Notes under the pieces: generated by a model | Told to the model about the DNA's origin: nothing | The model's database searches: none | The model's input: only the letters and a program-made list of their open reading frames with translations | Source of the DNA: Octopus vulgaris | Lineage: Eukaryota | Reading direction: 5' to 3' | Length of the DNA stretch: 64,000 nucleotides | Assembly: GCA_951406725.2 (NCBI GenBank) | Contig: OX597817.1 | Location: forward strand, 170,252,001-170,316,000 | Shown here: piece by piece, positions 10,000-58,883 of the stretch | How the letters are laid out: each line of letters starts with the position of its first letter | Position numbering within the stretch: position 1 is the first letter of the stretch | Made by a program: the position numbers and the translations under genes

Positions 10000-11995
10000 T
10001 GGTGAACAGATCTTCTTGAGTACAGCAAAGCATCAGATAACTTGGTCTTTTGTCATCTCCTTCGTAAGGCTCAATATCTTGAGATGGGCCTTCAGTACTT
10101 TGTCCCATGTTTTTCTGGATCTCTTTAAGTGATCAGCACTACTTTATGCAACTGCCCACATCCATACATATCACATGCAATATTCTTTCTTGTCCTGTGC
10201 ATCTAATTCCATTTATACCTAACTTTTCACTTAATACATTAGTGTTCTCTTGCACGTGTACACTGACATTGCACATCCAGTGGAGCATATTTGCTTCATA
10301 CCTCTCTAGTCTTTGCATGTCTTCTGCATTCAGGGCCCATGTCTCACTACCATGTAGAATTATTGTTTGCACAAATGTATAATACAATCTTACTTTTACT
10401 CAGAGAGAGAGAGACCTTTGTTTGCTAACAGAATTAAATGCTCTCTAAATTTTCCGCATCCTATTCTTATTCTAGCAATTACACTTTTCCTCTCCCACTG
10501 TTAATTAGGCCTCCTAGGTAGCAGAAATTATCCACTACCTATCTCTAAAGAGCCTCAAGAGAAAATCAATTCCCTGTGTATCCGTAGTCTTTATAGCTTC
10601 TGTGCATCTTCCACATGCAAACACTACTTTCTTTAATAACCTTCCCATTATTCCACTGCACCTTTTGTATGTCTATAGCTTGCACTTGGTCCACTGTATG
10701 GAACTGCTGCCTACACATAGGTTCTTACTAGAACCTTAGTCTTTACTAAGTTAATCTTAAGGCACTTTGATTCCAGGCTTTGCTTCCACACCTGGAGTTT
10801 CGTTTTTAGTTCTGTTATAGAATCTGCTATGACAACAAGATCATTAACATATAGCAGTTCCCAGGGGCATCTGGTCTTGAGTTCTTCTGTTATGGACTGG
10901 AAGACAATGATAAATAGAATTAGGGCTAAAAACCAAACCTTAATGAACACCCACCTGTACACTAAATTCATGATTAATTCTAACCTTATTAACAAAACCT
11001 CTGTTTATGGCTTTTACAAGCCACTCTTCTACCTCTACATTCCTGAGAGCCCACCATATTACACAGTGGAATAGTAGGCTTTTTCTAAATCAACAAATGC
11101 CAAGTACAATGGTTTATTCATAGCCAAATACTTCTGAAATTGTCTAACTATAAAGATAGCATAAGCAGTGCTTCTCCCTAGCACAAAGCCAAACTGCATT
11201 TCATCTAATCTGATTGGGCCAAGACTATTTATGAAAGTTTCATGACCAGCAATTTGATGCCTCATAATTACTTCTAAGGCATCACTTGTAGTAGCTGACT
11301 ATAATGCTGCTGTCCCAGTCATTGGGATGACACCTTCCTGAATAACCTGATTAACTATATGGGTAACTAGACTGTATCCTTCTCCAACAAATATTTCAAG
11401 CATATCAATGATGGATCTGGGAGCTTTCCTGGTCTTCATATCCTTAATTGCCTTAAAGACTCCGCCGGTTACGACGATGAGGGTCCCAGCTGATACGATC
11501 AACGGAACAGCTTGCTCGTGAAATTAATGTGCAAATGGCTGAGCATTCCACAGACACGTGTACCCTTAACGTAGTTCTCGGGGATAATCAGCGTGACACA
11601 GAGAGTGACCCTTTGAAATACAAGTACAACTCATTTTTGCCAGCTGAGTGGACTGGAGCAACGTGAAATAAAGTGTCTTGCTCAAGGACACAACGCGTCG
11701 CCGGGAATCGAACTCACAACCTTACGATCATGAGCCGAATGCCCTAACCACTAAGCCACGCGCCCTCACTCTTAATTGCCTTATCTATCATACTACTGTC
11801 AACATGAATGGCTAGTCCCTATGTTGGGTTCAAATAGGGGAGAATCCCAACTTTCATTCATTCTCTATATTTAATAGCCTTTTGTCGTAGCATTTCTATG
11901 CATCTTTCTTTTCAGAATCAGAGTAAAAGCATACCATTATTCATCCGTACAGACTTCTCTTTGATACATCGTCTAGCAATCTGGAATACCTCAAA
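10000..11995 (-). mobile_element. Degenerate RTE-clade LINE reverse-transcriptase region
   Basis: QFGFVLGRST..AIFIVRQ...YLAFVDLEKAY, LLYVNDLVVIA (decayed YADD) and LHGSETWAL motifs in ORFs 11059..11265, 10711..10995 and 10139..10387. Confidence 0.88.
11456..11770 (-). mobile_element. tRNA-derived SINE inserted into the RTE LINE; 13-bp TSD
   Basis: Head GTGGCTTAGTGG...GAGTTCGATTCCC; TSD cttaattgcctta at 11443-11455 and 11771-11783. Confidence 0.88.
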
Positions 11996-13811: not shown

Positions 13812-14076
13812 AAAGCTGTCTTAGTACTAGAGCTGTTATCAATGGGTCTCTGCTATATGACTTCTTATTGTTAATAAAAATTGGTGGCTTTAAATAAATT
13901 TACAAGTCAGAAATACTCTAACATCAAAAGAACTAAAGAGATATGTAATTAAATCTTTAGTGTTCAGATTACTCTGTCAAGTTTGATACTTATTTATTGT
14001 TTTGAATTAATCATGCATTATCATGTAACTTGGTTTTGATAGTGTGATAGTTCATTTTTAGAATGACATTCTAGAA

Positions 14077-14283
14077 CAGGGGTGGTCGAACTTTTTTGAT
14101 CGCGGGCCGCACAGTGCGTCTTTGGAACCTTGGCGGGCCTCATTTATAAAAATCAAGTGAAAATATTGTGAATTACCGTACAACTGAAACAGTTACGAAG
14201 TATCTGCATAGAAGTTGAGATTCATAAAAGCTCTCGGTGGGCCACATGAAAACTTATGGCGGGCTGTAGTTTGCCCACCCCTG
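14077..14283. mobile_element. hAT (Charlie-like) MITE nested in a piggyBac-like MITE
   Basis: TIR caggggtgg/ccacccctg; 8-bp TSD ttctagaa/ttctagag (7/8 match). Confidence 0.8.
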
Positions 14284-14597
14284 TTCTAGAGTAAGTGTAA
14301 GAGGCCAGATCGTGACAGTTTGAATATGAAACAGGTGGAAATAGCCAGTTGAAATGCTAAACAGTTAAAGCAATCATCATCATCGTTTAACGTCTGTTCT
14401 CCATGCTAGCATGGGTTGGACGGTTCGACCGGGAATCTGGGAAGCCAGAAGGCTGCACCAGGCTCTGGTCTTTGATAAAGATGATGATGACTAAGGACAG
14501 CAACTACAAAAAACATATCAAGAAATTTATTCATACAAATTTGTCTAGGGGTGATGAAGGAAAAAAAATAAATAAAAAAAAATGACAATTTTTTTTT

Positions 14598-14603
14598 TTT
14601 ATT
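14598..14603 (-). promoter_or_regulatory. Candidate PSMA5 polyadenylation signal AATAAA
   Basis: tttatt on + about 155 nt after the stop, followed on the minus strand by a U-rich tract. A second AATAAA overlaps the stop codon. Confidence 0.45.
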
Positions 14604-14757
14604 GAAAGAAAAGAAGCCTGACTGTGATAGGAGCGATACATACTGCATTGCCTTGCAAAAACGGGGATGAGCAGAGCAAGCAGTGAAAGAAACTGTTCTG
14701 GTCATCAGGATTCCATGAAAACAAATTCTGAATTAAGATGTACATTGATAGAGGTTT

Positions 14758-14850
14758 TTATTTTCTGCCTTTTTCAATATCTTCAATAATTTTTTCGAGA
14801 TCTTCTCTGGAAAACATGTTGAAGTTTTTCTCTCGCGTCACAGTTGCCAT
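14758..14850 (-). CDS. PSMA5: PSMA5 terminal coding exon (MATVTREKNFNMFSREDLEKIIEDIEKGRK*)
   Basis: 93 nt including TAA; ttacag acceptor. The joined CDS is 741 nt = 246 aa with no internal stop. Confidence 0.96.
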   Translation of the reverse strand: MATVTREKNFNMFSREDLEKIIEDIEKGRK

Positions 14851-15128
14851 CTGTAATGAGAACCGCAGTCGTAGTCGTTAAAACAGGATTACAATGATGA
14901 AAAGAAACAGAGATAATTACATTATCACAAGAATCATAAGGGTTTAACTATTAAGAAACATGAAAAGTCCTGCCACACATCATCATCATCTTCATTTTGC
15001 AACTCTTTTCATGCTGGCATGGGTTAGATGGTTTGACTGGTATTGGTAAGCTGGAGAGCAACACAAGGCACTGGTTGTCTGTTTTAGTTGAGTTCCTATT
15101 GTCAACCACTCTATATAGTGTACTGGGT

Positions 15129-15510
15129 GTGGAGGCGCAATGGCCCAGTGGTTAGGGCAGCGGACTCGTGGTCATAGCATCGTGGTTTCGATTCCCAGAC
15201 CGGGCGTTGTGTTTATTGAGCGAAAACACCTAAAAGCTCCACGAGGCTCTGGCAGGGGGTGGTGGTGATCCCTGCTGTACTCTTTCACTACAACTTTCTC
15301 TCACTCTTACTTCCTGTTTCTGTTGTACCAGTATTTCAAGGGGCCGGCCTTGTCACTCTCTGTGTCACGCTGAATATCCTCGAGAACTACGTTAAGGGTA
15401 CACATGTCTGTGGAGTGCTCAGCCACTTACACGTTAATTTCATGAGCAGGCTGTTCCATTGATTCGGATCAACCGGAACCCTCGTCGTCGTAACTGACGG
15501 AGTGCTTCCC
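15129..15510 (+). mobile_element. tRNA-derived SINE; 14-16-bp TSD; nested in an older (GAT)n-tailed element
   Basis: TSD atagtgtactgggt at 15115-15128 and 15511-15524; A and B boxes in the head. Confidence 0.85.
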
Positions 15511-16893
15511 ATAGTGTACTGGGTGTCTTAAGTGTGTCACTGGCATGGGTGTCTTTCATGACTTCTTATTGTTAATAAAAATTGGTGGCTTTAAATAAAT
15601 TTACAAGTCAGAAATACTCTAACATCAAAAGAACTAAAGAGATATGTAATTAAATCTTTAGTGTTCAGATTACTATGTCAAGTTTGATACTTATTTATTG
15701 TTTTGAATTAATCATGCATTATCACTTAGCTTGATGTGTCATCTCAAGCGCAGCAAATCATCAAAGTTCTCGATCACTTGTCATTGCCACAGTTAAAATA
15801 TCAACTAGATGACTTAAATGCTCAGTACACTTGGTATACAGTGACTGATTATTGTTTAGCTGTAGGACTGTACTGATTCAACAGAACTATGATCAAAGTG
15901 TTCTAATTGTGTAATCACTACATCCTTTATTCAGTGTATCTAGAATGACATTATCCAACATGTAATTTTATTTTGAAGACAATAGAATGTAATTTGAGGG
16001 AAATTTGGCTGTTATTTCTAGCAAATATATTGGTTAAAACCATAAGCAAGTGAGTGGTTACATTGATGTTCTATTTCATAAACATGATTCAGTGATCGAG
16101 CACATGTGCTTGAACTAGATTTTAATACTCAATCAAGAGATTTAAAAAGTCTGTCTAAAGTCAATCATTATTCACGAAATGGAGGTACCATCAATCATTA
16201 TCTCCTCTTTGGCATACACAGTTTTGGATGAGAATTTCTGTCTGTTGCTAACAACATTTTGTTTCTCAGATTTAGTTTATTACAAATCAAAACCTGTTGT
16301 AGAACAAGCCTCTATGTGATTGCCTGACGAGCTAGAAATAATAACCATATCAAACACTATCTTAAAAAGAAAGAGGGGTGGCGGAATTGTTTGATGCTAT
16401 CAACCATACATTCTCTCCATTCATCATCATGAAATAACCTATTTCTTTATTACCCACAAGGGGCTAAACACAGAGGGGACAAACAAGGACAGACATAGGT
16501 ATTAAGTCGATTACATCGACCCCAGTGCGTAACTAGTACTTATTTAATCGACCCCGAAAGGATGAAAGGCAAAGTCGACCTCGGCGGAATTTGAACTCAG
16601 AACGTAGCGACAAACGAAATACCGCTTAGCTCCATGTTGGCATGAGTTGGACGGTTTGACAGGAGCTGGCCAGGCACCATGTCTGTTTTGGTATGGTTTC
16701 TACAGCTGGATGCCCTTCCTAATGTCAGCCACTTCGAATACTGGGTACTTTAAAAAGGCAAAACCTGTTGAAGAAGGGCTGGATAAATAGGTGCTTCACT
16801 GAACACATTTTAAGCTACTAAAAAAAACAAAAAAAACAACAACAACAACAAAAAAAACACACTAAGATCAACAGCTACAAAGATAACACTCAC

Positions 16894-16980
16894 CTCGACA
16901 TTGGTTGGGTCTAGTTTTTCTTCCATGACTTGCTGCAAAATCTTTAGAGCTTCTTTACGTGCCTCATCCAGACTCATTGA
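16894..16980 (-). CDS. PSMA5: PSMA5 coding exon 7 (SMSLDEARKEALKILQQVMEEKLDPTNVE)
   Basis: 87 nt; tctag acceptor, gtgagt donor; QVMEEKL motif. Confidence 0.98.
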
Positions 16981-17269
16981 CTAGACAGAAGAAAGACCAG
17001 ATATCTCACCATCATCCACATTGCTGATTAACTCTTCAAAACAAATTTTAACTAGAACAGGTAACACTGCCACAGCCACCACTAATATTGCCTCCATTCC
17101 TTTCCTATATGACCACATCACCATTGTTTAATGCCTGCCTTCCATGCTGGCATGGGTTGGATGGCTTGACTGAGGGCTGGCAAGCCAGAAGTCTGTACCA
17201 GGCTTCAATCTTATCTGGCAAGGTTTCTACAGCTGGATGCCCTTCCTAATGCCAACAACTCTGAGTGTG

Positions 17270-17607
17270 CTGAGACCCCCTTTGGTCATGACTAACCATG
17301 GGATTGCACCTAGAAAGTTACCCTCCAAGGCACAAGTCCAGGCAAGGTTGTCTATGGAAGACCAGCAGTCGCCCATGCATACCAGCCTCCCCTCTCCACA
17401 CCACCAATGTTATCCAAGGGAAAGGTAAGGGCTGATACAGCTTGGCACCAGTGACTTCACAACTCATTTCTACAGCTGAGTGAACTGGAACAACGTGAAA
17501 TAAAGTGTCTTGCTCGAGAACACAACACGCAGCCCGGTCCAGGATTTGAATTCACAACCTCACGATCGTAAGCTTGACGCTCTAACCACTGAGCCATGTG
17601 CCTTCAC
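17270..17607 (-). mobile_element. tRNA-derived SINE (other copies at 47100-47345 and 61445-61780)
   Basis: Head TGGCTCAGTGG...GAATTCAAATCC; CORE-like gagcaagacactt; a distinct 3' body shared by three copies. Confidence 0.8.
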
Positions 17608-17838
17608 TGAGAGTGTAGTAGCTACTTTTTAGGTGCCACTGGTACAAGGGCCAGTCAGGCGTAACTGGTATCGACCGTGCTTGAATGGTGCTTTTTACAT
17701 GCCACTGGCACTGGAGCCAGTCAAGCAGCACTGGTAAGGACTACTACTCCACCATCATCTCTATTGCTACTGCCACTACCATATAGCATCCACCTACATA
17801 GACCATCACACACAATCAGTTTTTCCATCATTTTATAA

Positions 17839-19282: not shown

Positions 19283-19916
19283 TATACTGAATATAACATG
19301 ATTGAAGTGTTCAAATCTTGTTGCAGTCAATAAATAGTGACCCCTACCTAAAACATTACCCGATTTGAGTTAGTTCAGTTGACAAATAGATTTCCCTTCT
19401 ACTTCAGTAGTGTACTAGTTAGCAATATGAAATACATCTACTGGTAAAAATAAAACTAGTTCCAACAAAGAGCAAAATGCCCACATTTTATTTTTTATAA
19501 AACAGAAACAAAATCATCATCATCATTTAACGTCCGCTTTCCATGCTGGCATGGGTTGGACGATTCAACTGGGGTCTGGGAAGCCAGAAGGCTGCAGCAG
19601 GCTCCAGTCTGATCCGGCAGAGTTTCTACAGCTGGATGCCCTTCCTAACACCAACCACTCCGTGAGTGTAGTGGGTGCTTTTTACGTGCCAGACGAAGCT
19701 GGCAACGGCCACGGTCGGATGGTGCTTTTTACGTGCCACCGGCACGGAGGCCAGTCGGGCGGCGCTGGCAACGGCCATGTTCGGACAGTTCTCTTACATG
19801 CCACTGGCACTGGTATCACAGCTACAAATTCCATTGATGTTGATAGATTACGATTTTGATTTAACAAAAACATTTATGGTAAAAGTGCATGTAAAATATT
19901 TGAACATATTGAATAC

Positions 19917-20019
19917 CTTATGATAGACATCCTGCAGTGCTTGTTGTGCTCCTTCTGACCCAGATCCTATAGCTTTAGCATCATACTGTATGAAAGTGCC
20001 TGATGGATCCATATGGAAT
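19917..20019 (-). CDS. PSMA5: PSMA5 coding exon 6 ([35 protein letters not shown])
   Basis: 103 nt; tag acceptor, gtattc donor; DPSG and AIGSG motifs; seen inside ORF 19848..20051. Confidence 0.98.
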
Positions 20020-20517
20020 CTATCCAAATATGAAAAAAAAAAATTTATCATTCAATGCTACACATTAAGCTAAGACAATATTATATATTATACGTTGTGT
20101 GTATATACATACAAATAAATAATCATCCTCATTATTTAATGTCCATTTTCCATGCTGGTGTGGGTTGGGCAGTTTAACAAGAGCTGGCGAACCAGAGGAC
20201 TGTACTAAGCTGTTTGCTTTGGCATGGTCTCTATGGCTAGATGTTCTTCCTAATGTCAAACATCTAACAGAGTGTACTGGGTGCTTTTTGCATGACACCA
20301 GGACCAGCGTGGTCATCAAATAGCTTGCAAGACAAAGACCCCTCAACTAAGATTGGGAGTAGTATTAAGCGAGATCGCATTGTGCTGGGAAATTAGAGCT
20401 TAACATATGATAAAGGGATAAAAAGAAGTGTCTTGCTGTACATATCTGTATTACTGAGACTCTTTATGCAAGTGTGACAGCACAACATTACTAACTTTAA
20501 TTTTACACAATATTTAA

Positions 20518-20738
20518 CCCTTTCGTTACTGTATTTAATTTTGAGATGCTCTGTGTTTCTTTAAATTACTTTAAATATAACAAAGAATTTAGTAAAATAA
20601 CTTAGTTATCATTCAGCTAGTGTTAGGAACATAAATTGTGACTAAGGTTTGGTGGAAGATTTTAATTCAAAACTTATGAAAACAAGACTTTTGTACTCAG
20701 AGCCAGAGCCAGTTTCAGCCAGGTTAGTAATGAAAGGG
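20518..20738. mobile_element. piggyBac-like MITE (TTAA TSD)
   Basis: ttaa|ccctttcgttact...agtaatgaaaggg|ttaa. Confidence 0.78.
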
Positions 20739-21030
20739 TTAAACTATCATTGCAAACAAGTAAGACATAGTAACATATACTATGCTTCCATTAATTGTTT
20801 TTGGAGTCTATATAGTCTCCAGGAGAGATAGACACTCTCTTGACCCTCTCACCCATGACTTTGTGTAATGTTGAGAAAATGTGACAGCCGAAGAGAGAGT
20901 ACTGCATCACCACTCATGTAGGTACTCTTTTTCAGCTGAGTAGACAATGATGTGAAATGAAGTACTTTGCTCAAGAATAACACTGTCTAGTTCAGAAATT
21001 GAAATCTTATGATTACTACCTAACCATTAA

Positions 21031-21250
21031 CCCTTTAGCATTCAGATTAATCTGTCAAATGTAAAGCCTGTTTAATTACATTGTTTTAAATTAATTGTAC
21101 AGCATCTTGTAACTCTGAGATTTTGATGATGTCCCTGTTTATTTTTAGAATGACATTGTAGGGTAGGTGTGAGAAGTCAGAGCTGGCTGGTTTGAGAATA
21201 AAACAGGAAGACAATTTTGGCCTGGTATGGCCGGTTTAAACACTAAAGGG
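21031..21250. mobile_element. piggyBac-like MITE (TTAA TSD)
   Basis: ttaa|ccctttag...ctaaaggg|ttaa; related, interrupted copies at about 13950-14368 and 57439-57885. Confidence 0.75.
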
Positions 21251-21452
21251 TTAAAATGCAGGGCAGAACCCCCCACCCAAAAAAAAAATAAAACATAGTT
21301 TAGGTTAGCTTTCTGCAAACTATAATTATAAATAAATTATGATGATGTCATAATACAGCCAGAGTATTATCTAAATTTTATGAAAAATTTAGGTAACACA
21401 ATTTAGTATGAGAAACAGTTGTACAAGTTTCTAGATGTTTACAGTTACTTAC

Positions 21453-21511
21453 AATTGAGGACCTTTCTCATCAATACCAGCAAATAGCAATGCTACACCG
21501 AATGGACGGCT
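21453..21511 (-). CDS. PSMA5: PSMA5 coding exon 5 (SRPFGVALLFAGIDEKGPQ-L)
   Basis: 59 nt; ttacag acceptor, gtaagt donor; conserved RPFGV motif. Confidence 0.98.
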
Positions 21512-22539
21512 CTGTAAGGAAAAATGTAAGTTTTTAATAAGTTATCTAGTAAAATAACTTTATATGATGAGTCCTTAGACACAATAATAGAGATTATATT
21601 ATTTATTAGAATATAGTCCTACAAAATAATGGCGAAAATTATGAATTAAGACTTAGCTCAGATGGATAGCCAATTAAATTAGGAATATAGCTAAACATTT
21701 CATCACTCCCAACAAGCTGTAGTTAATGTTCATTTTTATCAATTGTAAGTGATTAAAAGAATGTTATTTTTTGGCCAAGTAAACTCCTAATTTAAATGGT
21801 TTCCAACCACGACTATTCTGTTCTTTTGTGTATCAGGGACAACAATGTCAAATGTATCCTCCTTATTTCTAGGAAAATAAGGTATGATTTAAAAATTTGA
21901 CAGCTATTTCTAGCACTACACAGAAGCTCTGTAATAGTTGATACAAGTGCTTTTGAATCCAGAATGTTGAATGAAGAATACTGTATAATACTCAGCTTAA
22001 TGATCTATCATTTTCTGCCAACTTTATCTTTTCAAGTGAAGGCATATATTTCAATTTTTTTTTCCAGACAAACCCAAGGGAGGTAACCCTGTGTATCAAT
22101 ACACTATACCCTCTACGTCATCACGCAGGTGGCAGAATTGCTAGTACGCCGAGCAAAATGCTTAGCGGCATTTCGTTCGTCTTCATGTTCATAGTTCAAA
22201 TTCCGTGGAGGTCCTTTCATCCTTTGAAATAGATACTTTCGAATATTCGAAAGTCTTCAATGTAGTAGAAATTCCATAATGTAGACCATGGACACAAGAG
22301 GTGAGGTGATATCACAGGCAGACGAAAGGAGGAAACAGAAATCATATGCACAGGTGTTAGTAAACTGTAAGACCTGTGTAATAGATGCTTTCAAATGCCT
22401 GGATGGCACCTTGGCGATTGAATTAGAAGTGGGGGTAGGAGCTCAAGAAGCAGAACAGCCAAAGTAAAATTTTTGAGGAGCTATTATATCTGCTTGCAAC
22501 TAGGACATTGTCTCTTCAAGAAATGGGTAGATTGTTTGA

Positions 22540-22941
22540 TAGGAGTGGCTGTGTGGTAAGTAGCTTGCTAACCAACCACATGGTTCTGGGTTCAGTCCCA
22601 CTGCGTGGCATCTTGGGCAAGTGTCTTCTGCTGTAGCCCCGGGCCAACCAATGCCTTGTGAGTGGATTTGGTAGACGGAAACTGAAAGAAGCCTGTCGTA
22701 TATATGTATATATATATATAAGTGTGTGTGTGTATATGTTTGTGCGTCTGTGTTTGTCCCCCTAGCATTGCTTGACAACCGATGCTGGTGTGTTTACGTC
22801 CCTGTCACTTAGAGGTTCGGCAAAAGAGACCGATAGAATAAGTACTGGGCTTACAAAGAATAAGTCCCAGGGTCGATTTGCTCGACTAAAGGTTGTGCTC
22901 CAGCATGGCCGCAGTCAAATGACTGAAACAAGTAAAAGAGT
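22540..22941 (+). mobile_element. CORE-like tRNA SINE in a PSMA5 intron
   Basis: Shares subfamily-diagnostic variants with 18883-19282. Confidence 0.88.
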
Positions 22942-23039
22942 ATAGTCCCCACTGGCTCTTCTAAATCACACTTGGCCTGAACAGCCACCAGCACCTTTTG
23001 TACCAATCAAGATGAAGAGGCTCAATACTCATTACAGAT

Positions 23040-23490
23040 TAATTAGTCGGATATGAGTTAATTCCACTGCTGCCACCAAGTACATAGTGCAATATTGCAT
23101 GGTAGTGAAATAGGTGTATTGACTGTAAGGGTGTATGAAGGCTTGAATAAAATGAGGTGAGTATTTTCTGTTGCATGTTGGGATGAATAAAGAATGGAGT
23201 ACAAATGAGCCAAGAAAAATTCCATGTGTCTAACACACGTGGACATGCCTACAAAGTCAGAAAACAACACAGCTCCCATGACTTTCGGAAACATTTCTTC
23301 ACGCTCAGAGTTGCTGAAGCATGGAATAAACTGCCTGCGTCAGTTGTTGACTGCCATGACACTGCATCCTTTAAGGCCCTCATGCTTTCCGAAATCCGCC
23401 GAAACTACACCTGATTATATATACACTTTAGATGAGTTGTAGTGCACCTGAGCACTGTACACAATTATTATTATTATTATTATTATTATA
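23040..23490 (+). mobile_element. CR1/L2-type LINE 3' fragment with (ATT)n tail
   Basis: ORF 23205..23414 reads NTRGHAYK...RKHFFTLRVAEAWNKLP. Confidence 0.8.
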
Positions 23491-23898
23491 TAATGAATAA
23501 GATGCAACATAATGAAAGGAGACAGATATATGATGGAACTTGAAGATGAAAACAGGAGAAACAGTTGTAGTGACTGATCTCAGGATGTTGAACTTCATTA
23601 GGGAAATAACAAAAGGCTGGGCCGCTGTGGTGAAGACTTGACCAACACAGGCAAACAGAACAACTGAATAACATAACTATACAATTATGAGAAAATATCT
23701 AAATTTTCGTATCACGCCCTAATGCTATGGAAAAAAGACATATTGAAATAATATAATCTAAGATGGAAATTTAGTGGATAAAATAAAAAAGAAAAAATCA
23801 TAGCCTGACTACTTTCAATCACAAGTCTGCTTGATTAGAGCTGACTTAGGGGCTAAAAATCATCAGCAATAAAAATGAATCAGTTCAAAATATCACAA

Positions 23899-24184
23899 CG
23901 GCCGTTGCCAGCCTCTCCTGGCCCCCGTGCCGGTGGCACGTAAAAAGCACCATCCGTCCGTGGCCGTTTGCCAGCTCCGTCTGGCACCTGTGCAGGTGGC
24001 ACGTAAAAAGCACCCACTACACTCACGGAGTGGTTGGCGTTAGGAAGGGCATCCAGCCGTAGAAACACTGACAGATCTGACTGGGCCTGATGCAGCCTTC
24101 TGGCTTCACAGACCCCAGTTGAACCGTCCAACCCATGCTAGCATGGAAAGCGGACGCTAAATGATGATGATGATGATGATGATG
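23899..24184 (+). mobile_element. (GAT)n-tailed short retroelement family with a variable number of ~60-bp internal units
   Basis: Conserved 3' end ...ccaacccatgctagcatggaaagcggacgctaaa(tga)n. Other copies at 19514-19860(-), 24523-24982(-), 25855-26330(-), 28283-28690(-), 31783-32024(+), 46368-46680(+), 54705-55039(+) and 63285-63675(+). Confidence 0.8.
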
Positions 24185-25020
24185 AAAAAGTACTTTGGTA
24201 GTTTCTGAAGTGTGAGAAAGAATGTTTTGCAATTCCTTGCTGAACAGCTGGCCCCTGATGATTTGTTTATTGTGATCAAATGTTTGTGGGACATAGGCTT
24301 ATTCCTTTATTCAAATCGACGATGTCTGTACAGACGCATGGCACTCCATACATCAAATGTCAAAATGATTGCAGAGCAACAGGAAATAAAGTGTTTTGCT
24401 GAAGAACACAACACAATTCACCAACCAGTCTGGGTACTGAACCCACAATCTTGAAGTTGTGAGTGCAACACCCTAACCATTAAACCATGTGCCTTCAATA
24501 AAAAGTATATAACCACATTATTCATCATCATCGTTTAACGTCCGTTTTCCGCGCTAGCACAGGTTGGACGGTTCGACCAGGGTCTGGGAAGCCAGGGGCT
24601 GCACCAGGCTCCAGTCTGATCTGGCAGAGTTTCTACGGCTGGATGCCCTTCCTAACGCCAACCACTCCGCAAGTGTAGTGGGTGCTCTTTACGTGCCAAC
24701 CGCACAGGTGCCAGGGGGGGGGTCCGGCATCGGTCACGATCGGTTGGAGCTTTTAACGTGCCAGCCAAGGCGGGACTGGCAACGTTCGGATGGTCTTTTT
24801 ATGTGCCACCGACACAGGAGCCAGTCGGGGCGGCGCTGGCATCGGCCACGTTTGGTTGGTGCTTTTTATGTGCCACCGGCACAGAAGCCAGTCGGGGCGG
24901 TGCTTTTTATGTGCCACCAGCACAGAAGCCAGTCGGGGCGGTGCTGGCATCGGCCACATTCGGATAGTGCTTTTTATGTGCCAATTATTACAATTTAGAG
25001 AAACAGAGAGAAGTACTTAC

Positions 25021-25128
25021 CATGGCACCTGGATCTGCATCATCATCACCAAATGCCAATGCGAGATTACTAACAGCTTGTGTAACACTCTCAACACTCA
25101 TCTTCTCGTTATAGGTAAACCAATGGTT
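25021..25128 (-). CDS. PSMA5: PSMA5 coding exon 4 ([36 protein letters not shown])
   Basis: 108 nt; tttcag acceptor, gtaagt donor; alpha-5-specific NHWFTYNE...DADPGAM sequence. Confidence 0.98.
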
Positions 25129-26381
25129 CTGAAAGACAACACAGTAAATATTTATAGACGAGATTAATCTGATGAAATGGTCAAGTCTTACTGAAATGAC
25201 GGCTTGGGAGGGAATGGCAGTTTAGGATTTGCTGCTGCTGTTGTTTTAACATCCACTTTTCCATGTTTGCATGAGTTAGATGAGATTATGTTGAAATTCT
25301 GCTGGGACAGAATTTTCTATGCCCCAACATACTCTTTCAGTCATCAGTCCTCACCTGTTTCTAAGGGAGGTGATAATCTAGTCTACTGGACAACAAACAG
25401 CCTGGACATGTTTACATGGAGAATTGGGAACAAATGGTGGCATCACACAGATGAACCTTTCATTTTCAAAGATCATACAATATATCAAGAAGCTGAACAT
25501 TCTTTCATGGTGGACTGCAAGAAAGAATAACCAATCACGAACACACACAAATACACATGACATGCTTCTGGTTTCTGCCTATCAGATCTAATCACAAGGC
25601 TTAGGTCAGCCCGGGGTTAAAGTAGAAGACTGAACCCAAGACTGAACCCAAAACCATATGCTCAGGAAGTGAACTGCTTAATAACACAGCCATGCCTGTA
25701 CCATTATATATATATATTCAACAATGAGCGTGAAAAAAATTAGATATTAATTCAATAATATCGTTGGCGATTATACCGGAGGAGCTATTTCTAGCACTAG
25801 AGTTAACATATTCAAAGTTGGCTCTCTTATATTTACGGATAAATATATATATATATCATAATCATCATCATCATCATCATTTAGCATCCGTTTTCCATGC
25901 TAGCATGGGTTGGACAGTTCTACTGGGGTCTGTGAAGCCAGAAGGCTTCATCAGGCCCAGTCAAATCTGGCAGTGTTTCTACGGCTGGATGCCCTTCCTA
26001 ACGCCAACCACTCCGTGAGTGTAGTGGGTGCTTTTTACGTGCCACCCGCACAGGTGCCAGACAGAGGTGGCAAACGGCCACGAACGGATGGTGCTTTTTA
26101 TGTGCCACCGGCACGAGGGCCAGGCGGGGCTGGCAACAGACACGAAATGGGGCGGTGCTGGCAACGGTTGCGAAACGGAAGGTTCTCTTACATGCCACCG
26201 GCACTGGTAACACATCTGCAATTTCCATTGATCGATTTCGATTCTGATCCTCACTTGCCTCAACAGGTCTTCACAAGTAGAGTTTTGTGTCCCAAGAAGG
26301 GAAGGTATGCATACGTAGGCTGGCTCCAGGATAAAATGTTTTTCGAAAAAAATGTTATTAAAAAATACCTTTAAAGGCTAA

Positions 26382-26501
26382 ATATATAAACAATTCATAA
26401 ATAAGGGCAAACGAAAAAAATTTCCAATGCCAAATATTGGACATATTGTCCATTAACCATTAATTTTTTCGTTTGCCCTTATTTATGAATTGTTTATATA
26501 T
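26382..26501. repeat. Inverted repeat with ~40-bp arms next to (TA)n
   Basis: atatataaacaattcataaataagggcaaacgaaaaaa and its complement; the spacer holds a small tggaca/tgtcca hairpin. Confidence 0.9.
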
Positions 26502-27002
26502 ATATATATAGATACATTGTAAAATTGTAGAGAGCTTTTGATATTTTATGTTACAATAGAGTGACTGATCTTCTTGTACTACTAATAGATGATACACTGC
26601 AAAATAATTTAGCGGTCATGACCACGTATATAGAATACACAGTAAATTAAACTCAACCTGTCCTAATATGCAAACCAAGCCAGTGCAGCTGCTGCATTTG
26701 CAAACACTCATCTTAAAAATCATTCAAAAGAAAGTCATCTTCCAACTGATTAGCAAAGATTCACTTGCCAACATACTACAATCTTTAGCTCAGACATGCT
26801 GTCTCCACACTGTCTATTCAATCACTGCTGCAACATCTGCACCTCTGAACCAGTTAGTTGAATACCGTTTTCACTCAAACCTACTTGACTCTCATTCCCT
26901 CATCAGTCATCAACACTGGTGTGTTGCATCAATCTCACCAACCTTAGAGGGTCTCCAAGGTTATGGACACTGCCCCCTTCTTGACTAAACCATGCAAGAA
27001 GT

Positions 27003-27409
27003 ACTCTTTTACTCTTTTGCTTGTTTCAGTCCTTTGACTGCGGCCATGCTGGAGCACCAACTTTTTTAGTCAAGCAAATCGACCCCGGGACTTATTCTTT
27101 GTAAGCCCAGTACTTATTCTATCGGTCTCTTTTGCCGAACTGCTAAGTGACGGGGACGTAAACACACCAGCATCGGTTGTCAAGCAATGCTAGGGGGACA
27201 AACACAGACACACAAACACACACACATATATATATATACATATATATGACGGGCTTCTTTCAGTTTCCATCTACCAAATCCACTCACAAGGCTTTGGTCG
27301 GCCCGAAGCTATAGTAGAAGACACTTGCCCAAGGTGCCATGCAGTGGGACTGAACCCAGAACCATGTGGTTGGTTAGCAAGCTACTTACCACACAGCCAC
27401 TCCTGCGCC
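27003..27409 (-). mobile_element. CORE-like tRNA SINE, full length, in a PSMA5 intron
   Basis: Reverse complement of the 7444-7863 family. Confidence 0.88.
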
Positions 27410-27794
27410 TAGTATTGTATTTTCCAGCACAAAAGTTTAGGTAGTATATAATGTAAACATTCAAACACTGTCACTATATTTCTAAATCTTGTGGCATTCC
27501 ACGTAGAATTTTTGGTCCTCCAAAGTTCTCTTAGTGAATAAGTAAATCTACCTTTTTTAACTGTAAATTTTGGTCAGAAAAATTTGATTTGTATGTCCAA
27601 AAATATGGTAGTTAGAGTTGATACACACACACACACATTTTCCCATCAGATCAAGACTGGAGCCTGGTGCAGCCATCTAGTTGCCAGCCCTCAGTCAAAA
27701 CCGTCCAACCCATGCTAGCATGGAAAACGGACGTTAAACGATGATGTTGATGATAAGCATGATAGAAGACGTTACATTTAAATTCAATATTCAC

Positions 27795-27862
27795 CTGAGC
27801 TTCAACTCGCGCTCGGTCAATCATTGTTCGGGAATCTGCAACCAATCCACTCATAGCACAAC
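27795..27862 (-). CDS. PSMA5: PSMA5 coding exon 3 (G-CAMSGLVADSRTMIDRARVEAQ)
   Basis: 68 nt; tttcag acceptor, gtgaat donor; phase fits exon 2; seen inside ORF 27651..27875. Confidence 0.98.
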
Positions 27863-27983
27863 CTGAAAGAAACAAGAGTTAGTTGGAATAGGTAGTCAGC
27901 AGACCAGACTATCTTTATACAATTAATTAAACACAGTAAAGAATTCATTACAATTTACTTGCAAATTTATCTTTTATACTTAC

Positions 27984-28110
27984 CTATATGTGAATCAACC
28001 TCGAGAACTTTCTCTATACTTGAAGCCACAATCAGAGGACAGGTAACCCTCTTTTCGACAGCCAACACAATACCATCGTTGGTTTGGATCCCTATGGCAG
28101 TAGAACCAAG
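27984..28110 (-). CDS. PSMA5: PSMA5 coding exon 2 ([43 protein letters not shown])
   Basis: 127 nt; tag acceptor, gtaagt donor; phase 0 to 1; matches the alpha-subunit GST..GI and LAVEKR motifs. Confidence 0.98.
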
Positions 28111-29024
28111 CTATAAATACAAAATGATAATCCAATGTAAATTCTAACAAAATCTTTTCCTACTTTTAACACTGATAAATGTTAAATAAATATAAGATTG
28201 TCAAGAACTTTTATTTGAAATTGCTGGAAAGCAGATATATTCAAAATTTCATCACTCGTAACTGTGAAAAGTAGTTTTATACATCATCATCATCATCATC
28301 GTTTAGCGTCCGTTTTCTATGCTAGCATGGGTTGGACGGTTCTACTGGGGTCTGTGAAGCCACAAGGCTTCATCAGGCCCAGTCAGATCTGGCAGAGTTT
28401 CTACGGCTGGATGCCCTTCCTAACGCCAACCACACCGTGAGTGTAGTGGGTGCTTTTTACGTGCCACCCGCACAGGAGCCAGACGGAGCTGGCAAACGGC
28501 CACAAACGGATGGTGCTTTTACGTGCCACCGGCACGGGGGCCAGGCGAGGCTGGCAACGGACATGAACGGATGGTGCTTTTACGTGCTACCGGCATGGGG
28601 GCCAGGCAAGGCTGGCAACAGACACGAACGGATGGTGCTTTTATGTGCTACCAGCACGGGGGCCAGGCGAGGCTGGCAACGGACACGAACATCTATTTTT
28701 TGTTGAGGAATATCATATTTGAAACTACTTTCTGTTGAGACAGGTCAAATGTTATCAAGGCAAAGAGACTGGCAGAAAATACCAATTCTATGTTTTTGGT
28801 AGATGTTTAACAACATTTATGGAATAATGATGTGATTAAATTTTGCAGTGAAAGAGTTAAAAGAGTAAAAATAAAAAAGACAGTCTCGGAAAGATGTCTT
28901 TTTCCAAAACACAACAGGTGCTAAATAGTTAACAGAAAATAAAATATTTCAGGTAAGCTTGTTGGAAAATTAAATCAAATAAAACATAAGTCATACAAAA
29001 ATGGGTCAAAGCACAATCATATTA

Positions 29025-30235
29025 GTCTGGCCCCCGGGCCGGTGACACGTAAAAGCACCATCCGTTCGTGGCCGTTTGCCAGCTCTGTCTGGCCCCCGTG
29101 CCGGTGACACGTAAAAGCACCATCCGTTCGTGGCCGTTTGCCAGCTCTGTCTGGCCCCCGTGCCGGTGACACGTAAAAGCACCATTCGCTCGTGGCCGTC
29201 TGCCAGCTCTGCCTGGCCCCCGTGCCGGTGACACGTAAAAGCACCATCCGTTCGTGGCCATTTGCCAGCTCTGTCTGGCCCCCGTGCCGGTGACACGTAA
29301 AAGCACCATCCGTTTCGTGGCCGTTTGCCAGCTCTGTCTGGCCCCCGTGCCGGTGACACGTAAAAGCACCATCCGTTCGTGGCCGTTTGCCAGCTCTGTC
29401 TGGCCCCCGTGCCGGTGGCATGTAAAAGCACCATCCGTTCGTGGCCGTTTGCCAGCCCTGTCTGGCCCCCGTGCCGGTGACACGTAAAAGCACCATCCGT
29501 TTGTGGCCGTTTGCCAGCTCTGTCTGGCCCCCGTGCCGGTGACACGTAAAAGCACCATCCGTTCGTGGCCGTTTGCCAGCCCTGTCTGGCCCCCGTGCCG
29601 GTGACACGTAAAAGCACCATCCGTTCGTGGCCGTTTGCCAGCTCTGTCTGGCCCCCGTGCCGGTGTCACGTAAAAGCACCATCCGTTCGTGGCCGTTTGC
29701 CAGCCCTGTCTGGCCCCCGTGCCGGTGACACGTAAAAGCACCATCCGTTCGTGGCCGTTTGCTAGCTCTGTCTGGCCCCCGTGCCGGTGACACGTAAAAG
29801 CACCATCCGTTCGTGGCTGTTTGCCAGCCCTGTCTGGCCCCCATGTCGGTGACATGTAAAAGCACCATCCGTTCGTGTCCGTTGCCAGCCTCGCCTGGCC
29901 CCCGTGCCGGTGACACGTAAAAGCACCATCCGTTCATGGCCGTTTGCCAGCCCTGTCTGGCCCCCGTGTCGGTGGCATGTAAAAGCACCATCCGTTCGTG
30001 CCCGTTGCCAGCCTCGCCTGGCCCCCGTGCTGGTGACACGTAAAAGCACCATCCGTTTCGTGGCCGTTTGCCAGCTCTGTCTGGCCCCCGTGTTGGTGGC
30101 ACGTAAAAGCACCATCCGTTCGTGTCCGTTGCCAGCCTCGCCTGGCCCCGTGCCGGTGACACGTAAAAGCACCATCCGTTCGTGGCAGTTTGCCAGCTCT
30201 GTCTGGCACCTGTGCAGGTGGCACGTAAAAAGCAC
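29025..30235 (+). repeat. 62-bp GC-rich minisatellite (~19 units) expanded inside a (GAT)n-tailed retroelement (element ends at about 30406)
   Basis: Unit gtctggcccccgtgccggtgacacgtaaaagcaccatccgttcgtggccgtttgccagctct; period 62 (starts at 29041, 29103, 29165...). Confidence 0.96.
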
Positions 30236-30870
30236 CCACTACACTCTCGGAGTGGTTGGCGTTAGGAAGGGCATCCAGCCGTAGAAACACTGCCAGATCT
30301 GACTGGGCCTGATGCAGCCTTCCAGCTTCACAGACCCCAGTTGAACCGTCCAACCCATGCTAGCATGGAGAACGGACGCTAAATGATGATGATGATGATG
30401 ATGATGAATAAGGGTTAAATTTGGTGAAGATCTCATCATAACTAAATTTAACGTCTCTTATACATATGCAATAGTCAAATTGGTTTCAAATTTTGGCACA
30501 AGGCCAGCAATTTCAGGGAGGAAGTAAGTTGATTAAAACGACCTCAGTGTTCAATTGATACTTATTTTGTCAACTCCAAAAGGATGAAAGGCAAAGTCAA
30601 CCCCAGTGGCATTTGAACTCAGAACATAATGTCAGAAGAAATGCTGCTAAGCATATTTTCTGGTGCAGTAACAATTCACAATACAGTCATATTACTATGC
30701 ATGTATTTCATCATATGATTAAGCTATTGTTTCTGACTAAATCTTAAACACCAACTATAACTACAATGTCTAATGTGTTCTTAGGATGAAGGTTGACCCG
30801 AACAGAAACAGGTTTCCTACAATAATTAAATAAGCTCCTTTAAGTGCTATTTCTCTCTCTTTTCCAGCTA

Positions 30871-31038
<168 letters not shown>

Positions 31039-49128: not shown

Positions 49129-49413
49129 TACTGGAGTCAATTTACTTGACTAAAAATTTTTCAAGGCAGTACCCCAGCATGGCCGCAGTCTAATGACTGA
49201 AACAAGTAAAAGATAAAAGATATATATATATATTCCAGCATGACCAAGCCGTGTAGCTGAAATGAGTATATCTTCCTCTCTTCGTTCTTCTTTTTTTCTC
49301 CATTTTCTTTTTTCTCTGCTTCATCTCATTTCCCTTCTACTATAATACCAAACAGCAAGAAGCTTATATATATATATATATATATATATAGATGTGCAAA
49401 TTCTATTATTTCT

Positions 49414-49478
49414 TCAATCATAACTTATCTGAAGACCCCGTGCTTCCATGGGTGAAACTCAGAGTAGCAAGAGATTGA
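49414..49478 (+). ncRNA. Type-I hammerhead-like motif (CUGAAGA core)
   Basis: CTGAAGA-C.CCCGTG(CTTC)CATGGG.T-GAA-ACTCAGAGT-A; stem I cttat/gcaag plus tcaatc/gattga; shares GTGAAACTCAGAGTA with 58644-58658; follows (TA)n. Confidence 0.55.
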
Positions 49479-49537
49479 TTCAACCGAAATAAAGTATTAT
49501 TAACCTCTACTTATGCTATCAAGTACTCTGAAATATA

Positions 49538-50768
49538 CAGGGGTTGGACTAAATAATGGAAACACCTTAAAATTTCAGACAAATTTATTTTAATATTGGG
49601 TAGGACTGCCTTTGGCAATAATTACAGCTTGAATTGTATGAGGTATGGACTTGTAGAAAGTTTGAATTGTTTCCAAAGGAATTTTTGTCCATTCTTCAGC
49701 TAAAACAGTCTCCAGTTCTTGTAGTGATGATGGTGGAGGTTATCAACACCTTACTTGTTTTTCTAAAATGCACCATAAATGTTCAATAATATTGAAATCA
49801 GGGGACTATGGTGGCCAGATAAGATGTTCAACTTCACTAGAATGTTCCTTGTGCCATTCAGTAACAACTTTAGTTGTGTGAATTGGTACATTACCATTCT
49901 GAAAGATTGTGTTTCCCTCCAGAAACAGTTCTGCAACCATAGGATGAATTTGATCAGATAAAATGCTTAAATAGTCTTGACTATTAATTCTGCCATGAAG
50001 GAAAACCCCAGATCATCACAAATCCTCCTCCATGTTTAACAGTTGGAAGAAGGCAGTCTGGGTCAAATGCTTGTTTTGGCGGTCTCCACGTGTATACTTG
50101 GCCAGTGGTTGGAAATAAGGTAAAGGATGACTCGTCCGAGAAAATGACCTTCCACTGCTCTAGGGACCAATTCTGTAGGTTTTTACTCTATTCTAAATGT
50201 CTTGCAGTGTTTGTTTTTGAAAGTAGTGGTTTTCTGATTGCAGCCCTACCATAAAATCCAGCTTTGTGCAGCTCCCGATGAACAATTTTTGTGGAAACTG
50301 GGTTCTCGAGGTGCTCATTAAGCTCTGCACTAATTTTGAGGGCAGTACTTTTGTGATCCTTTCTAACAATTTGCATAAGAGTCTGAGGGTCCCTATCTGA
50401 AAGTTTTGGTTTTCTTCTGGAGTTTTGTTTCGACAAGGAGGTTTTTTTCCTCTTTCTCAAAGGCTGTCATTAATTTCAAGACAATATTTCTTGATACACC
50501 AAACATTTTAGCCGTTTTTGTTACGCTAGTGCCTGCCATACGAGCACCAACAATTTGACCTCTTTGAAAGTTCGATAGATCTGTCATTTTAATGAATTTT
50601 AACTAACTTTTTTCAGATGATATCTGAAAAGAAACAGCAATTTTAGCAAAATATATTAAGCAACACTAATAATAAATAAAAAAAAACAAAAATAAACAAG
50701 CTTTTGATGGTTTTATAGATATTTCAAAATTATGATGCTAGGTGTTTCCATTATTTTCCCAACCCCTG
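49538..50768 (-). mobile_element. Full-length Tc1-family DNA transposon (inactive)
   Basis: TIR caggggttgg.c.aaataatggaaacacct and its complement; TA TSD on both sides; 1231 bp. Confidence 0.93.
49590..50587 (-). pseudogene. Tc1 DD34E transposase pseudogene
   Basis: MTDLSNFQRGQIVG HTH start, WKVIFSDES, FQNGNVPIH (second D lost), WPP*SPDFNIIEHLW, AVIIAKGSPTQY*; frameshifts and stops. Confidence 0.9.
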
Positions 50769-57158: not shown

Positions 57159-58616
57159 GATGGGCTTCTTTCAGTTTCCATCTACCAAATCCACTCACAA
57201 GGCTTTGGTCAGCCCAAGGCTATAGCAGAAGACATTTGCCCAAGGTGCCACACAGTGGGACTGAACCCGGAACTGTGTGGTTCATAAGCAAGCTACTTAC
57301 CACACACCCACTCCTATGCCTGTATGCTGCATCTCTTGTTGGAACAGCAAATGGTTGGTGGCTGCTCTGTTTTGGTTGTATCTTTTGCAGATGGCTGATT
57401 TGGTAGTCTAAAGAGAACTGCATCTGAATAGCATTTAACCCTTCAACATTCAGTTTATTCTATCAAACGTAAAGCTTATTTATTAACATTGTCTTGAATT
57501 AATCATGCATTATCTTTTAGCTTCAAGATTTTGATGTCATCATCATCATCATTTAATGTCCCGTTGTCCATGTTGACATGAGTTGGACAATGTGACCAGG
57601 ACTGGTAAGCTGAGGGGCTGCACCAGACTCCAGTCTGATTTTGCATGGTTTCTATGGCTGGATGCCCTTCCAAACACCAACCACTCTGAGAATGTAATGG
57701 GTGCTTTTTACATGCCACTGGCATGGGTGCCAGTTGTGTGACACCAGTATCTGCTGTGTCTATGATTTCACTTGACTTGTAAGTATTTATTATTAAAAGG
57801 ACATTGCTGGATAGGCATGAGAGGCCAGATCTAGCCAGTTTGGACATAAAACAGGTAGAATACGGCCGGTTTAAATCCTAAAGAGTTAAAAGAATTTTCA
57901 GTGAAGCCTTGTTGGTTCATTGGGGTCAGTTGAATAAGTGCAGGCCTTTAAATGCCAAACTGTTGTTGCATGGACTCCTGATGTGAATGTTTGAAGAGAG
58001 AGGGTAGGGATCTATCAGCATCTCCTATTCCTTTTGTCATCACTTGAGATTTTTGCACATGTCTCTGACAGTGTCATTTCTGTCTGAATGTCAAAAATTA
58101 AAGGTGTTTATTCTGGGAACATTTCCAGTTGCTAAGGTCTCCGAGTATATCTGTTGAATGCTTTTTGTAATCTCTGCAGTTTGTAGGTAAGGCCTGGACT
58201 ACCAGGAGACCATAGTTGTGAGCAGTTGTCCAACTGGCTTCATAGATAAGATTTTTAATACCAACAACCATGACCTTGATAGGTTGTTGACATTCTATGA
58301 ATATGTTTAAAGAAACAGGCATATACATACACACACATAAAAAAAAGCACAGTAAAGTGTAACACAACCAAATTCATGGTCAGTTGTGGGTTCCTCACTT
58401 CACTCCAGTCTACAGCATAGTACAACCTTAGGATAGGCTAGTGTACAGAATACAAGCTAAGTAATAATATGAAGAGAAAGCAGGTATGTTATTCAAAACT
58501 TTACAGGACATATGTGTATGTATATCCTAATAAGCTTTGAACACCATACCTGTTTTCTTCTTATCTTTTGTGTGTGTGTGTGTATATATATATATATACC
58601 GGAGTAAACACATTCT

Positions 58617-58670
58617 AGCAAAAACTGTCCGACGAACGGGAACGTGAAACTCAGAGTAACAGGTTTTGTT
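58617..58670 (+). ncRNA. Minimal type-I hammerhead-like motif with U4C core (CCGACGA)
   Basis: AGCAAAAACTGT-CCGACGA-ACG(GGAA)CGT-GAA-ACTCAGAGT-A-ACAGGTTTTGTT; 11 of 12 stem I positions pair; GNRA loop II; GUA site at 58658; (TA)n flanks. Confidence 0.65.
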
Positions 58671-58883
58671 GAATTTTACGCTGCTTTAAATAAAGTATAT
58701 ATATCATCATCATCATCATCATCATCGTTTAGCGTCCGCTTTCCATGCTAGCATGGGTTGGACGGGTCAACTGGGGTCTGTGAAGCTGGAAGGCTTCGTC
58801 AGGCCCGGCAGTGTTTCTACGGCTGGATGCCCTTCCTAACGCCAACCACTCCGTGAGTGTAGTGGGTGTTTTTTATGTGCCAC

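Follow-up and report, generated by a model that had tools for sequence, protein, structure and literature searches.

Introduction

The described systems closest to the repeat examined here are the Hydra-type Penelope-like retroelements of Craig et al. In the Hydra rows of the available part of their File S2 (PMC8557442), the core reads CTGA in 26 of 26 cases and helix III is the palindrome ACTC-N-GAGT in five of the 26; the hammerhead lies near the 3′ end of the element, and positions 10.1 and 11.1 are often unpaired. We examined a 64-kb window (the whole stretch of DNA analysed) of animal origin, with many microsatellites and dispersed repeats, that contains at 58.6 kb a copy of a repeat family fixed for cytosine at core position 4 (the C4 family). 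Like the rows Hydra-2_aMil, Hydra-2_aJap and Penelope-3_HM, this family has a type I hammerhead whose palindromic, four-base-pair helix III surrounds one central base. It shares with the Hydra rows a (TA)n target, inverted 5′ pieces and a hammerhead close to the 3′ end, and with Hydra-2_aMil a CTGT/ACAG stem I (PMC8557442). It differs from those rows, which are all CTGA, in being fixed for C4, and its stem II has two constant pairs where theirs has three or more (PMC8557442). Two further differences from Hydra elements are the 12 pairs of stem I in the 58.6-kb copy and the lack of a linked reading frame in the family. The hammerhead of Hydra-1_Obim, a published octopus Hydra element, is unlike that of the C4 family (PMC8557442).

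Two other groups of animal elements are comparable. The minimal Penelope hammerheads (PMC4209133) resemble the C4 family in being solo, dispersed motifs in hundreds to thousands, with a palindromic helix III and a predicted dimer; theirs have low activity. In the available part of that source, however, 56 of 56 representatives carry U4, and their stem II is a long helix with a closing G-C pair. U3-A8 occurs there as a core variant at the level of a family, but it is a compensated pair, whereas C4 is uncompensated. The animal non-LTR retrozymes (preprint 10.64898/2026.07.22.740005) are non-coding and Penelope-derived with a type I hammerhead, as the C4 family probably is; theirs are tandem units, each with a hammerhead, whereas the 58.6-kb copy is solo in the window.

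The same change from CUGA to CCGA has been described in peach latent mosaic viroid and in CtaHVd-LR1, with cleavage reportedly kept (PMC3088659, PMC9608096). There it is a minority state (a single viroid variant, and 4 of the 30 clones of a citrus viroid-like RNA, PMC9608096) in molecules with tertiary loop contacts, whereas here it is the consensus of a family of genomic repeats, and the 58.6-kb hammerhead has no evident loop contact. Penelope descriptors in Cervera and de la Peña (PMC4209133) and in Craig et al. (PMC8557442) require U4, as the available texts give them, so the absence of C4 from the published sets is partly built in; one virome survey reportedly uses a CYGANGA descriptor (PMC13481778). 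As far as the available sources report, viroid-like RNAs already offer U4C as a variant that is slow and in the minority; our literature searches found no retroelement family, or other animal repeat family, in which C4 is fixed throughout.

Results

Layout of the insertion at 58.6 kb

A first, sequence-only reading of this DNA described a TA-flanked insertion of about 100 bp at 58599..58703. The TA flanks are present: a (TA)8 tract (58583..58598) forms the insertion target on the 5′ side, with no discernible target-site duplication, and a (TA)4 tract (58696..58703) forms the 3′ flank, beyond which lie (ATC)n and a further repeat. The extent had to be shortened, as the insertion proper is 97 bp long (58599–58695), terminates in AATAAAG at its 3′ end and excludes the (TA)4 tail.

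All parts of the insertion are given for the plus strand. By contig depth, the 5′ leader (58599..58615) occurs in a small part of the family only, and it is either a truncation point or a subfamily-specific segment. It is followed by the 5′ arm of stem I (58616..58628; pair probabilities of 0.72–1.0 for 10 of the 12 pairs) and by the core strand C3-C4-G5-A6-C7-G8-A9 (58629..58635), in which C4 (58630) replaces the consensus U. Stem II (58636..58645) consists of an A·N apposition at 10.1/11.1, a C-G and a G-C pair, and a GGAA loop. Next come GAA, the palindromic helix III (ACUC-N-GAGU) and A17 (58646..58658), the 3′ arm of stem I (58659..58671) and a 3′ tail ending in AATAAAG (58672..58695), which the loose ends of contigs mark as the 3′ end of the family.

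The whole motif (58616–58671) has the layout of a type I hammerhead. Stem I (58616–58628/58659–58671) contains 12 pairs, two of them distal G-U pairs, and one A·G mismatch (58624/58663), and the pairs of stem II in this copy are A-U, C-G and G-C. GAA occupies 58646–58648 and ACUC-A-GAGU occupies 58649–58657; the predicted cut falls after A58658 (58658/58659), 37 bases from the 3′ end of the element. The C3-G8 pair (C58629/G58634), GAAA (58646–58649), A15.1-U16.1 (U58657) and GUA as the NUH site are all present. Every letter that the first reading listed (the stems, the GGAA loop, ACUC-A-GAGU, GUA and CCGACGA) is indeed found in the sequence. The core CCGACGA departs from CUGANGA, and on account of the fixed C4 we do not count the motif as a canonical type I hammerhead.

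Several features of the surroundings can be recorded here. At the A·G mismatch (58624/58663), no variant reaches 5%, so the mismatch may mark a subfamily instead of decay; clipped ends close by make this less clear. TTCTAG at the 5′ edge of stem I (58613–58618) resembles a 3′ splice site, as does a TTTTATTTCAG tract shortly upstream in another subfamily (loose ends at 58623); these sequences near stem I echo the D. virilis Penelope intron, which reportedly ends at helix I. An inverted duplication (58510–58595/58954–59039; 59 of 61 letters alike outside the microsatellite) encloses the hammerhead stub and a neighbouring repeat, and possibly reflects a fold-back at (TA)n during insertion.

The insertion had also been placed, in sense orientation, within a putative plus-strand host intron. 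This setting is not confirmed: no plus-strand exon was found by Pfam among the 238 frames scanned of 311 candidates, and the sole hint of plus-strand transcription lies beyond 36 kb, where the T-over-A skew is about −0.056. Elsewhere in the window lie minus-strand exons of proteasome subunit alpha-5 (19851–31038), one of which has bivalve proteins (82–85%) as its best named matches; minus-strand fragments of a Tc1-type transposase (50191–50466) and of a reverse transcriptase (10714–11004); and a tandem array (29025–30236) in which a 62-bp unit is repeated about 20 times with 92% matches. The 62-bp units are related to the tail units of a common dispersed repeat.

C4 is the state of the family

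We examined 58400–58730 in four of 24 listed public runs, using all contigs at 80% likeness and a 5% share: X5 (organism A), X8 (organism D), X16 (organism E) and X11 (organism A, guessed to be RNA), which come from four studies and bear three organism labels. The motif was covered by 2421 contigs in X5, 2271 in X8, 1377 in X16 and 189 in X11, and the summed depths of the core bin were 464,025, 262,707, 255,208 and 4,383, respectively; the flank bins used had depths of 4–30. Summed depth is not copy number: the core/flank ratio is 13,870–17,631 in the DNA runs, and drops to 447–569 on the assumption that as many as 31 overlapping short contigs count the same position. We claim only that family copies number from hundreds to many thousands. 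Helix III is covered more deeply than the core, as expected from overlap geometry (17 vs. 8 31-mers), and no contig bridging flank and element was found in the four runs.

At position 58630, no letter other than C reaches at least 5% of depth in any of the four runs, a bound that applies to summed contig depth and is dominated by abundant short contigs. Variants down to an 8% share were picked up nearby. One contig of X11 leaves the reference just before 58631. Independent evidence comes from fold-back pieces in X8: their sequence, GGACAGTTTTTG, is stem I together with C3-C4 in reverse complement. Because U4 stays below 5% while the larger subfamilies defined by position 11.1 and the palindrome centre exceed that share, C4 predates these subfamilies and is shared with organism E.

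As the first reading had suspected, these data support C4 as the state of the family and not as private decay. That reading had named a C4 private to this copy as the outcome that would count against it, and contig depth contradicts such privacy, with T below 5% at 58630 in all four deeply covered runs. Its argument from retained CpGs stands as an observation (six CpGs, observed/expected 1.67 vs. 0.50 for the window) and fails as proof, the sites being few. A mutation private to the 58.6-kb copy could still be argued from the U4 carried by all well-formed relatives elsewhere and by a second motif at 49.4 kb; it is nonetheless very improbable, given a T share below 5% in four of four runs at a position near which 8% variants are seen.

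Only two positions within the element vary at 5% or more in the four runs: 58645 (position 11.1) and 58653 (the palindrome centre). At 58645, T>A accounts for 23–37% and T>G for 10–18% in organisms A and D, and for under 1% in E; the 10.1/11.1 apposition, A-U in the 58.6-kb copy, is accordingly A·A or A·G in 41–48% of depth in three of the four runs. We conclude that the A and G alleles at 11.1 in A and D are lineage-specific subfamily bursts that followed the fixation of C4. At 58653, A>C makes up 8–14% and A>T 10–38% of depth (17–50% non-A). No variant at 5% was found at C58652 and G58654, which flank this centre, or at G5, A6, G8, A9, G12-A14, U16.1 and A17. A variable centre between fixed neighbours fits intermolecular pairing, not a three-base loop. 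Both variable positions are sites that a dimeric hammerhead leaves free, a coincidence that is suggestive only: the post-hoc chance that both fall among the 10 tolerant of 40 positions is 0.058.

Folding of monomer and dimer

The first reading had called this the cleanest fold in the window and had assumed activity as a dimer or in trans. The former holds for the letters of the motif and not for the best fold of the monomer, whose minimum free energy is −9.5 kcal/mol vs. −8.2 kcal/mol for the hammerhead fold. In the monomer, the pair probability of helix III is about 0.1 and that of stem II is 0.43; the 121-nt region folds with z = −1.66. The dimer assumption is supported by folding and by the varying palindrome centre in the family. 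The palindrome ACUC-A-GAGU can form an intermolecular duplex of eight pairs (−7.4 kcal/mol), and a swapped double hammerhead reaches −28.0 kcal/mol vs. −19.0 kcal/mol for two monomers (2 × −9.5). In these models, stems I and II pair, and a convincing helix III needs two molecules.

A descriptor that allows one core substitution, shaped post hoc after the motif had been seen, matched twice in the window, at the 58.6-kb motif and at 49429; on 100 shuffles, it gave one match in seven and two matches in none. At the gathering score, Rfam models matched neither hammerhead in the window, and no hammerhead is among 44 weak Rfam matches. A shifted register of the core was considered and ruled out, as U4 relatives align without gaps.

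The match at 49.4 kb belongs to a second, decayed hammerhead (49421..49496, plus strand), found by motif and model search, with a 6-bp stem II and a AAATAAAGTA tail. Its central part (49421–49474) has a canonical CUGAAGA core, a helix III identical to that of the 58.6-kb motif and a damaged stem I, and (TA)n precedes it at 49365–49390. Judged by its letters, it is a related family of the same architecture and provides a U4 comparison. Its 5′ arm and the 3′ arm of the 58.6-kb motif could pair at 6 of 7 positions, and the two motifs may form a mixed dimer within one long transcript.

Ends of the family

The consensus of the loose ends of 17 X8 contigs runs through TAAATAAAG into (TA)n with an agreement of 0.86. 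Family 3′ ends run into (TA)n, and the 58.6-kb copy has (TA)n on both flanks. Among the 24 loose ends listed of 209, the starts lie outside inner stem I (58621, 58623; 58659–58676). On the 5′ side, the pattern is one of truncation: depth tapers 5′ of stem I (in X5, it is 20,798 at 58604–58615 vs. 464,025 on the core; 58558–58604 were skipped as repeat), and the loose 5′ ends are mixed (agreement of about 0.5). Inverted 5′ pieces appear in X8 as fold-back loose ends and joints, with eight contigs at 58615.

The steep fall in depth and the mixed 5′ ends would also suit a short non-autonomous unit, retrozyme- or SINE-like, in place of the broken end of a protein-coding element; animal retrozymes stem from Penelope pLTRs and also occur as monomers, according to the available part of the preprint (10.64898/2026.07.22.740005). 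We regard this as unlikely. No head-to-tail joint is among the joints listed in the four runs, although short contigs could hide joints of other loci. Moreover, one subfamily continues upstream, its loose ends having medians of 93–118 letters, and one contig of X11 (the guessed-RNA run) has 739 letters upstream. As to chemistry, such a unit is compatible with the explanation that we prefer below.

Relatives and element class

Metagenomes were searched with the pattern C(C/U)GACGA ... GAAACTC-N-GAGTA, which gave 78 loci, 44 with U4 and 34 with C4. A loose stem filter passed 21 of the 78 (19 U4, 2 C4) and failed 57. All 17 loci with five of five stem I pairs carry U4 and have the same helix III. 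The two C4 loci were rejected as relatives: they have only four of five pairs, lie on contigs of 66% GC and are likely due to chance. The exact motif of the C4 family had no match in the metagenomes, and the C4 pattern, a narrow one, had none in viral contigs.

The stems of the U4 relatives covary, with 25 cells changed on both sides vs. 7.9 when shuffled and 0–8 in slid controls, a count that kinship inflates; of 15 such relatives, 11 leave positions 10.1/11.1 unpaired. When a model is trained on 15 U4 loci, it scores 58621–58666 at 39.9 bits (E ~7e-10) and 49421–49474 at 34.6, with the next match at 10.7, but these scores arise partly by construction, the loci having been selected by a pattern drawn from the 58.6-kb motif. 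In one U4 relative (L048), the likeness to the C4 family covers C7 and helix III and extends to stem I, AAAACTGT/ACAG.

Two of the U4 loci place the hammerhead within an element. An endonuclease-type frame ends 112 bp (L001) and 106 bp (L018) upstream of the U4 hammerhead on the same strand, and L018:3145–4120 is a Hydra-type element end in which an inverted reverse transcriptase fragment is fused to the endonuclease part on its 5′ side. Relatives of full length, about 700 aa, possess RWK, DKT and CxCX5C, which, together with (TA)n targeting, are given as marks of the Hydra clade in the available text of Craig et al. (PMC8557442). Neither Pfam nor PDB supplied a name for the endonuclease or full-length relative proteins, and the Hydra assignment therefore rests on motifs compared with that source. 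Among the loci examined, those with a Hydra-type frame are all U4 relatives that share this helix III; the C4 family has no linked frame, and tblastn found no Hydra-type frame in the 64-kb window. In the available supplement of Craig et al., where line breaks can hide matches, none of six family motifs was found as a hammerhead context, and two family motifs are absent from the available text of an O. vulgaris repeat supplement.

Together with the letters of the insertion, these relatives make it likely that it is a 5′-truncated 3′ end, left by a Hydra-type Penelope-like retroelement or by a non-autonomous derivative. The motif resembles the end of a Hydra-clade element; we do not file it as a member, as its core is CCGA and not CUGA.

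Discussion

Our best explanation, which we hold with moderate confidence, is that an abundant family fixed for C4, likely a truncated Hydra-type 3′ end, carries a hammerhead that is predicted to pair as a dimer and would cut slowly after GUA. A Hydra-type RT/GIY-YIG protein would reverse-transcribe the RNA into a (TA)n target, beginning at the AATAAAG end and breaking off early; target-primed insertion into (TA)n would thus come with early 5′ truncation. Two copies in one RNA, as in a tandem element, would pair through ACUC-N-GAGU and build two cores. U4C would weaken the uridine turn, and cutting would be slow and probably protein-assisted, with the fold presumably still under selection in master copies. 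The solo copy at 58.6 kb is without a same-family partner in the window and is likely inert.

The literature on U4C is split, for which reason slow, dimer-dependent cutting is ranked first and a dead but retained fold second. As reported by Perreault et al. (PMC3088659, citing Ambros and Flores), U4C considerably lowers in vitro activity and viroid infectivity is kept. A deep mutational scan reports low activity for single CUGA changes and, on its different scaffold, no second change that rescues CUGA mutants except a C3/G8 swap (PMC9901934). A lizard Penelope hammerhead reportedly cleaves only with its protein; its C3G and G8C mutants do not hinder insertion in vitro, and RNA-seq gives no RNA ends at the hammerhead site (PMC11167929). 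Because catalytic mutants insert in vitro, the spread of an element does not imply cutting.

From these reports one can construct a possible, if clearly less probable, account in which the element class is the same and the ribozyme is dead: U4C would have arisen in a master copy and spread since cutting is dispensable. What preserves the fold would then be its use as a handle, by the reverse transcriptase or in RNA dimerisation, or simply recent descent. The behaviour of the Penelope mutants, the missing RNA ends (PMC11167929) and the low CUGA mutants of the deep scan (PMC9901934) speak for it. So do a stem II with only two constant pairs and the reportedly wide distribution of Naiads without canonical hammerheads. 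C4-G5 is, moreover, a CpG one transition away from the canonical core, yet U4 stays below 5% in all runs. On the other hand, U4C is among the few core changes with reported activity (PMC3088659, PMC9608096), and the catalytic positions are without 5% variants while two free positions vary, which weakly fits selection on a catalytic shape.

The persistence of C4 could also mean that the core is fully competent, compensated by C7, by the short GGAA-capped stem II or by the long stem I, and equal to U4 or better. C4 is kept in subfamilies that differ at 11.1 (T, A or G), at the centre (A, T or C) or in the upstream arm, of which there are several, and under three organism labels, although reversion is a single CpG transition. 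We nevertheless consider this improbable: we identified no change that would compensate for C4, relatives with U4 have the same C7 and helix III and, in L048, the same stem I AAAACTGT/ACAG, and CUGA mutants went unrescued in the deep scan apart from the C3/G8 swap, albeit on a different scaffold (PMC9901934). Slow cutting by a dimer thus remains the explanation that we prefer.

Why Penelope-like elements keep hammerheads is a question raised by the available report that they are poor cutters and that catalytic mutants insert in vitro (PMC11167929). The C4 family has multiplied with a core change that should slow cutting, and its genome also has U4 families with this architecture; the two make for a natural one-base (C4U) comparison bearing on the need for self-cutting. 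It also marks a blind spot: Penelope descriptors, as available, fix CUGANGA, and Rfam misses the 58.6-kb motif. We suggest, tentatively and with more doubt than belief, that a mollusc Penelope-type family has been long running, across related species and through subfamily bursts, on C4 with a two-pair stem II, either as an active core compensated by protein or dimer, or as a non-cutting handle for dimerisation or the reverse transcriptase. If this is true, the C4 family would be the head of a genomic hammerhead class that is invisible to descriptors with a fixed U4.
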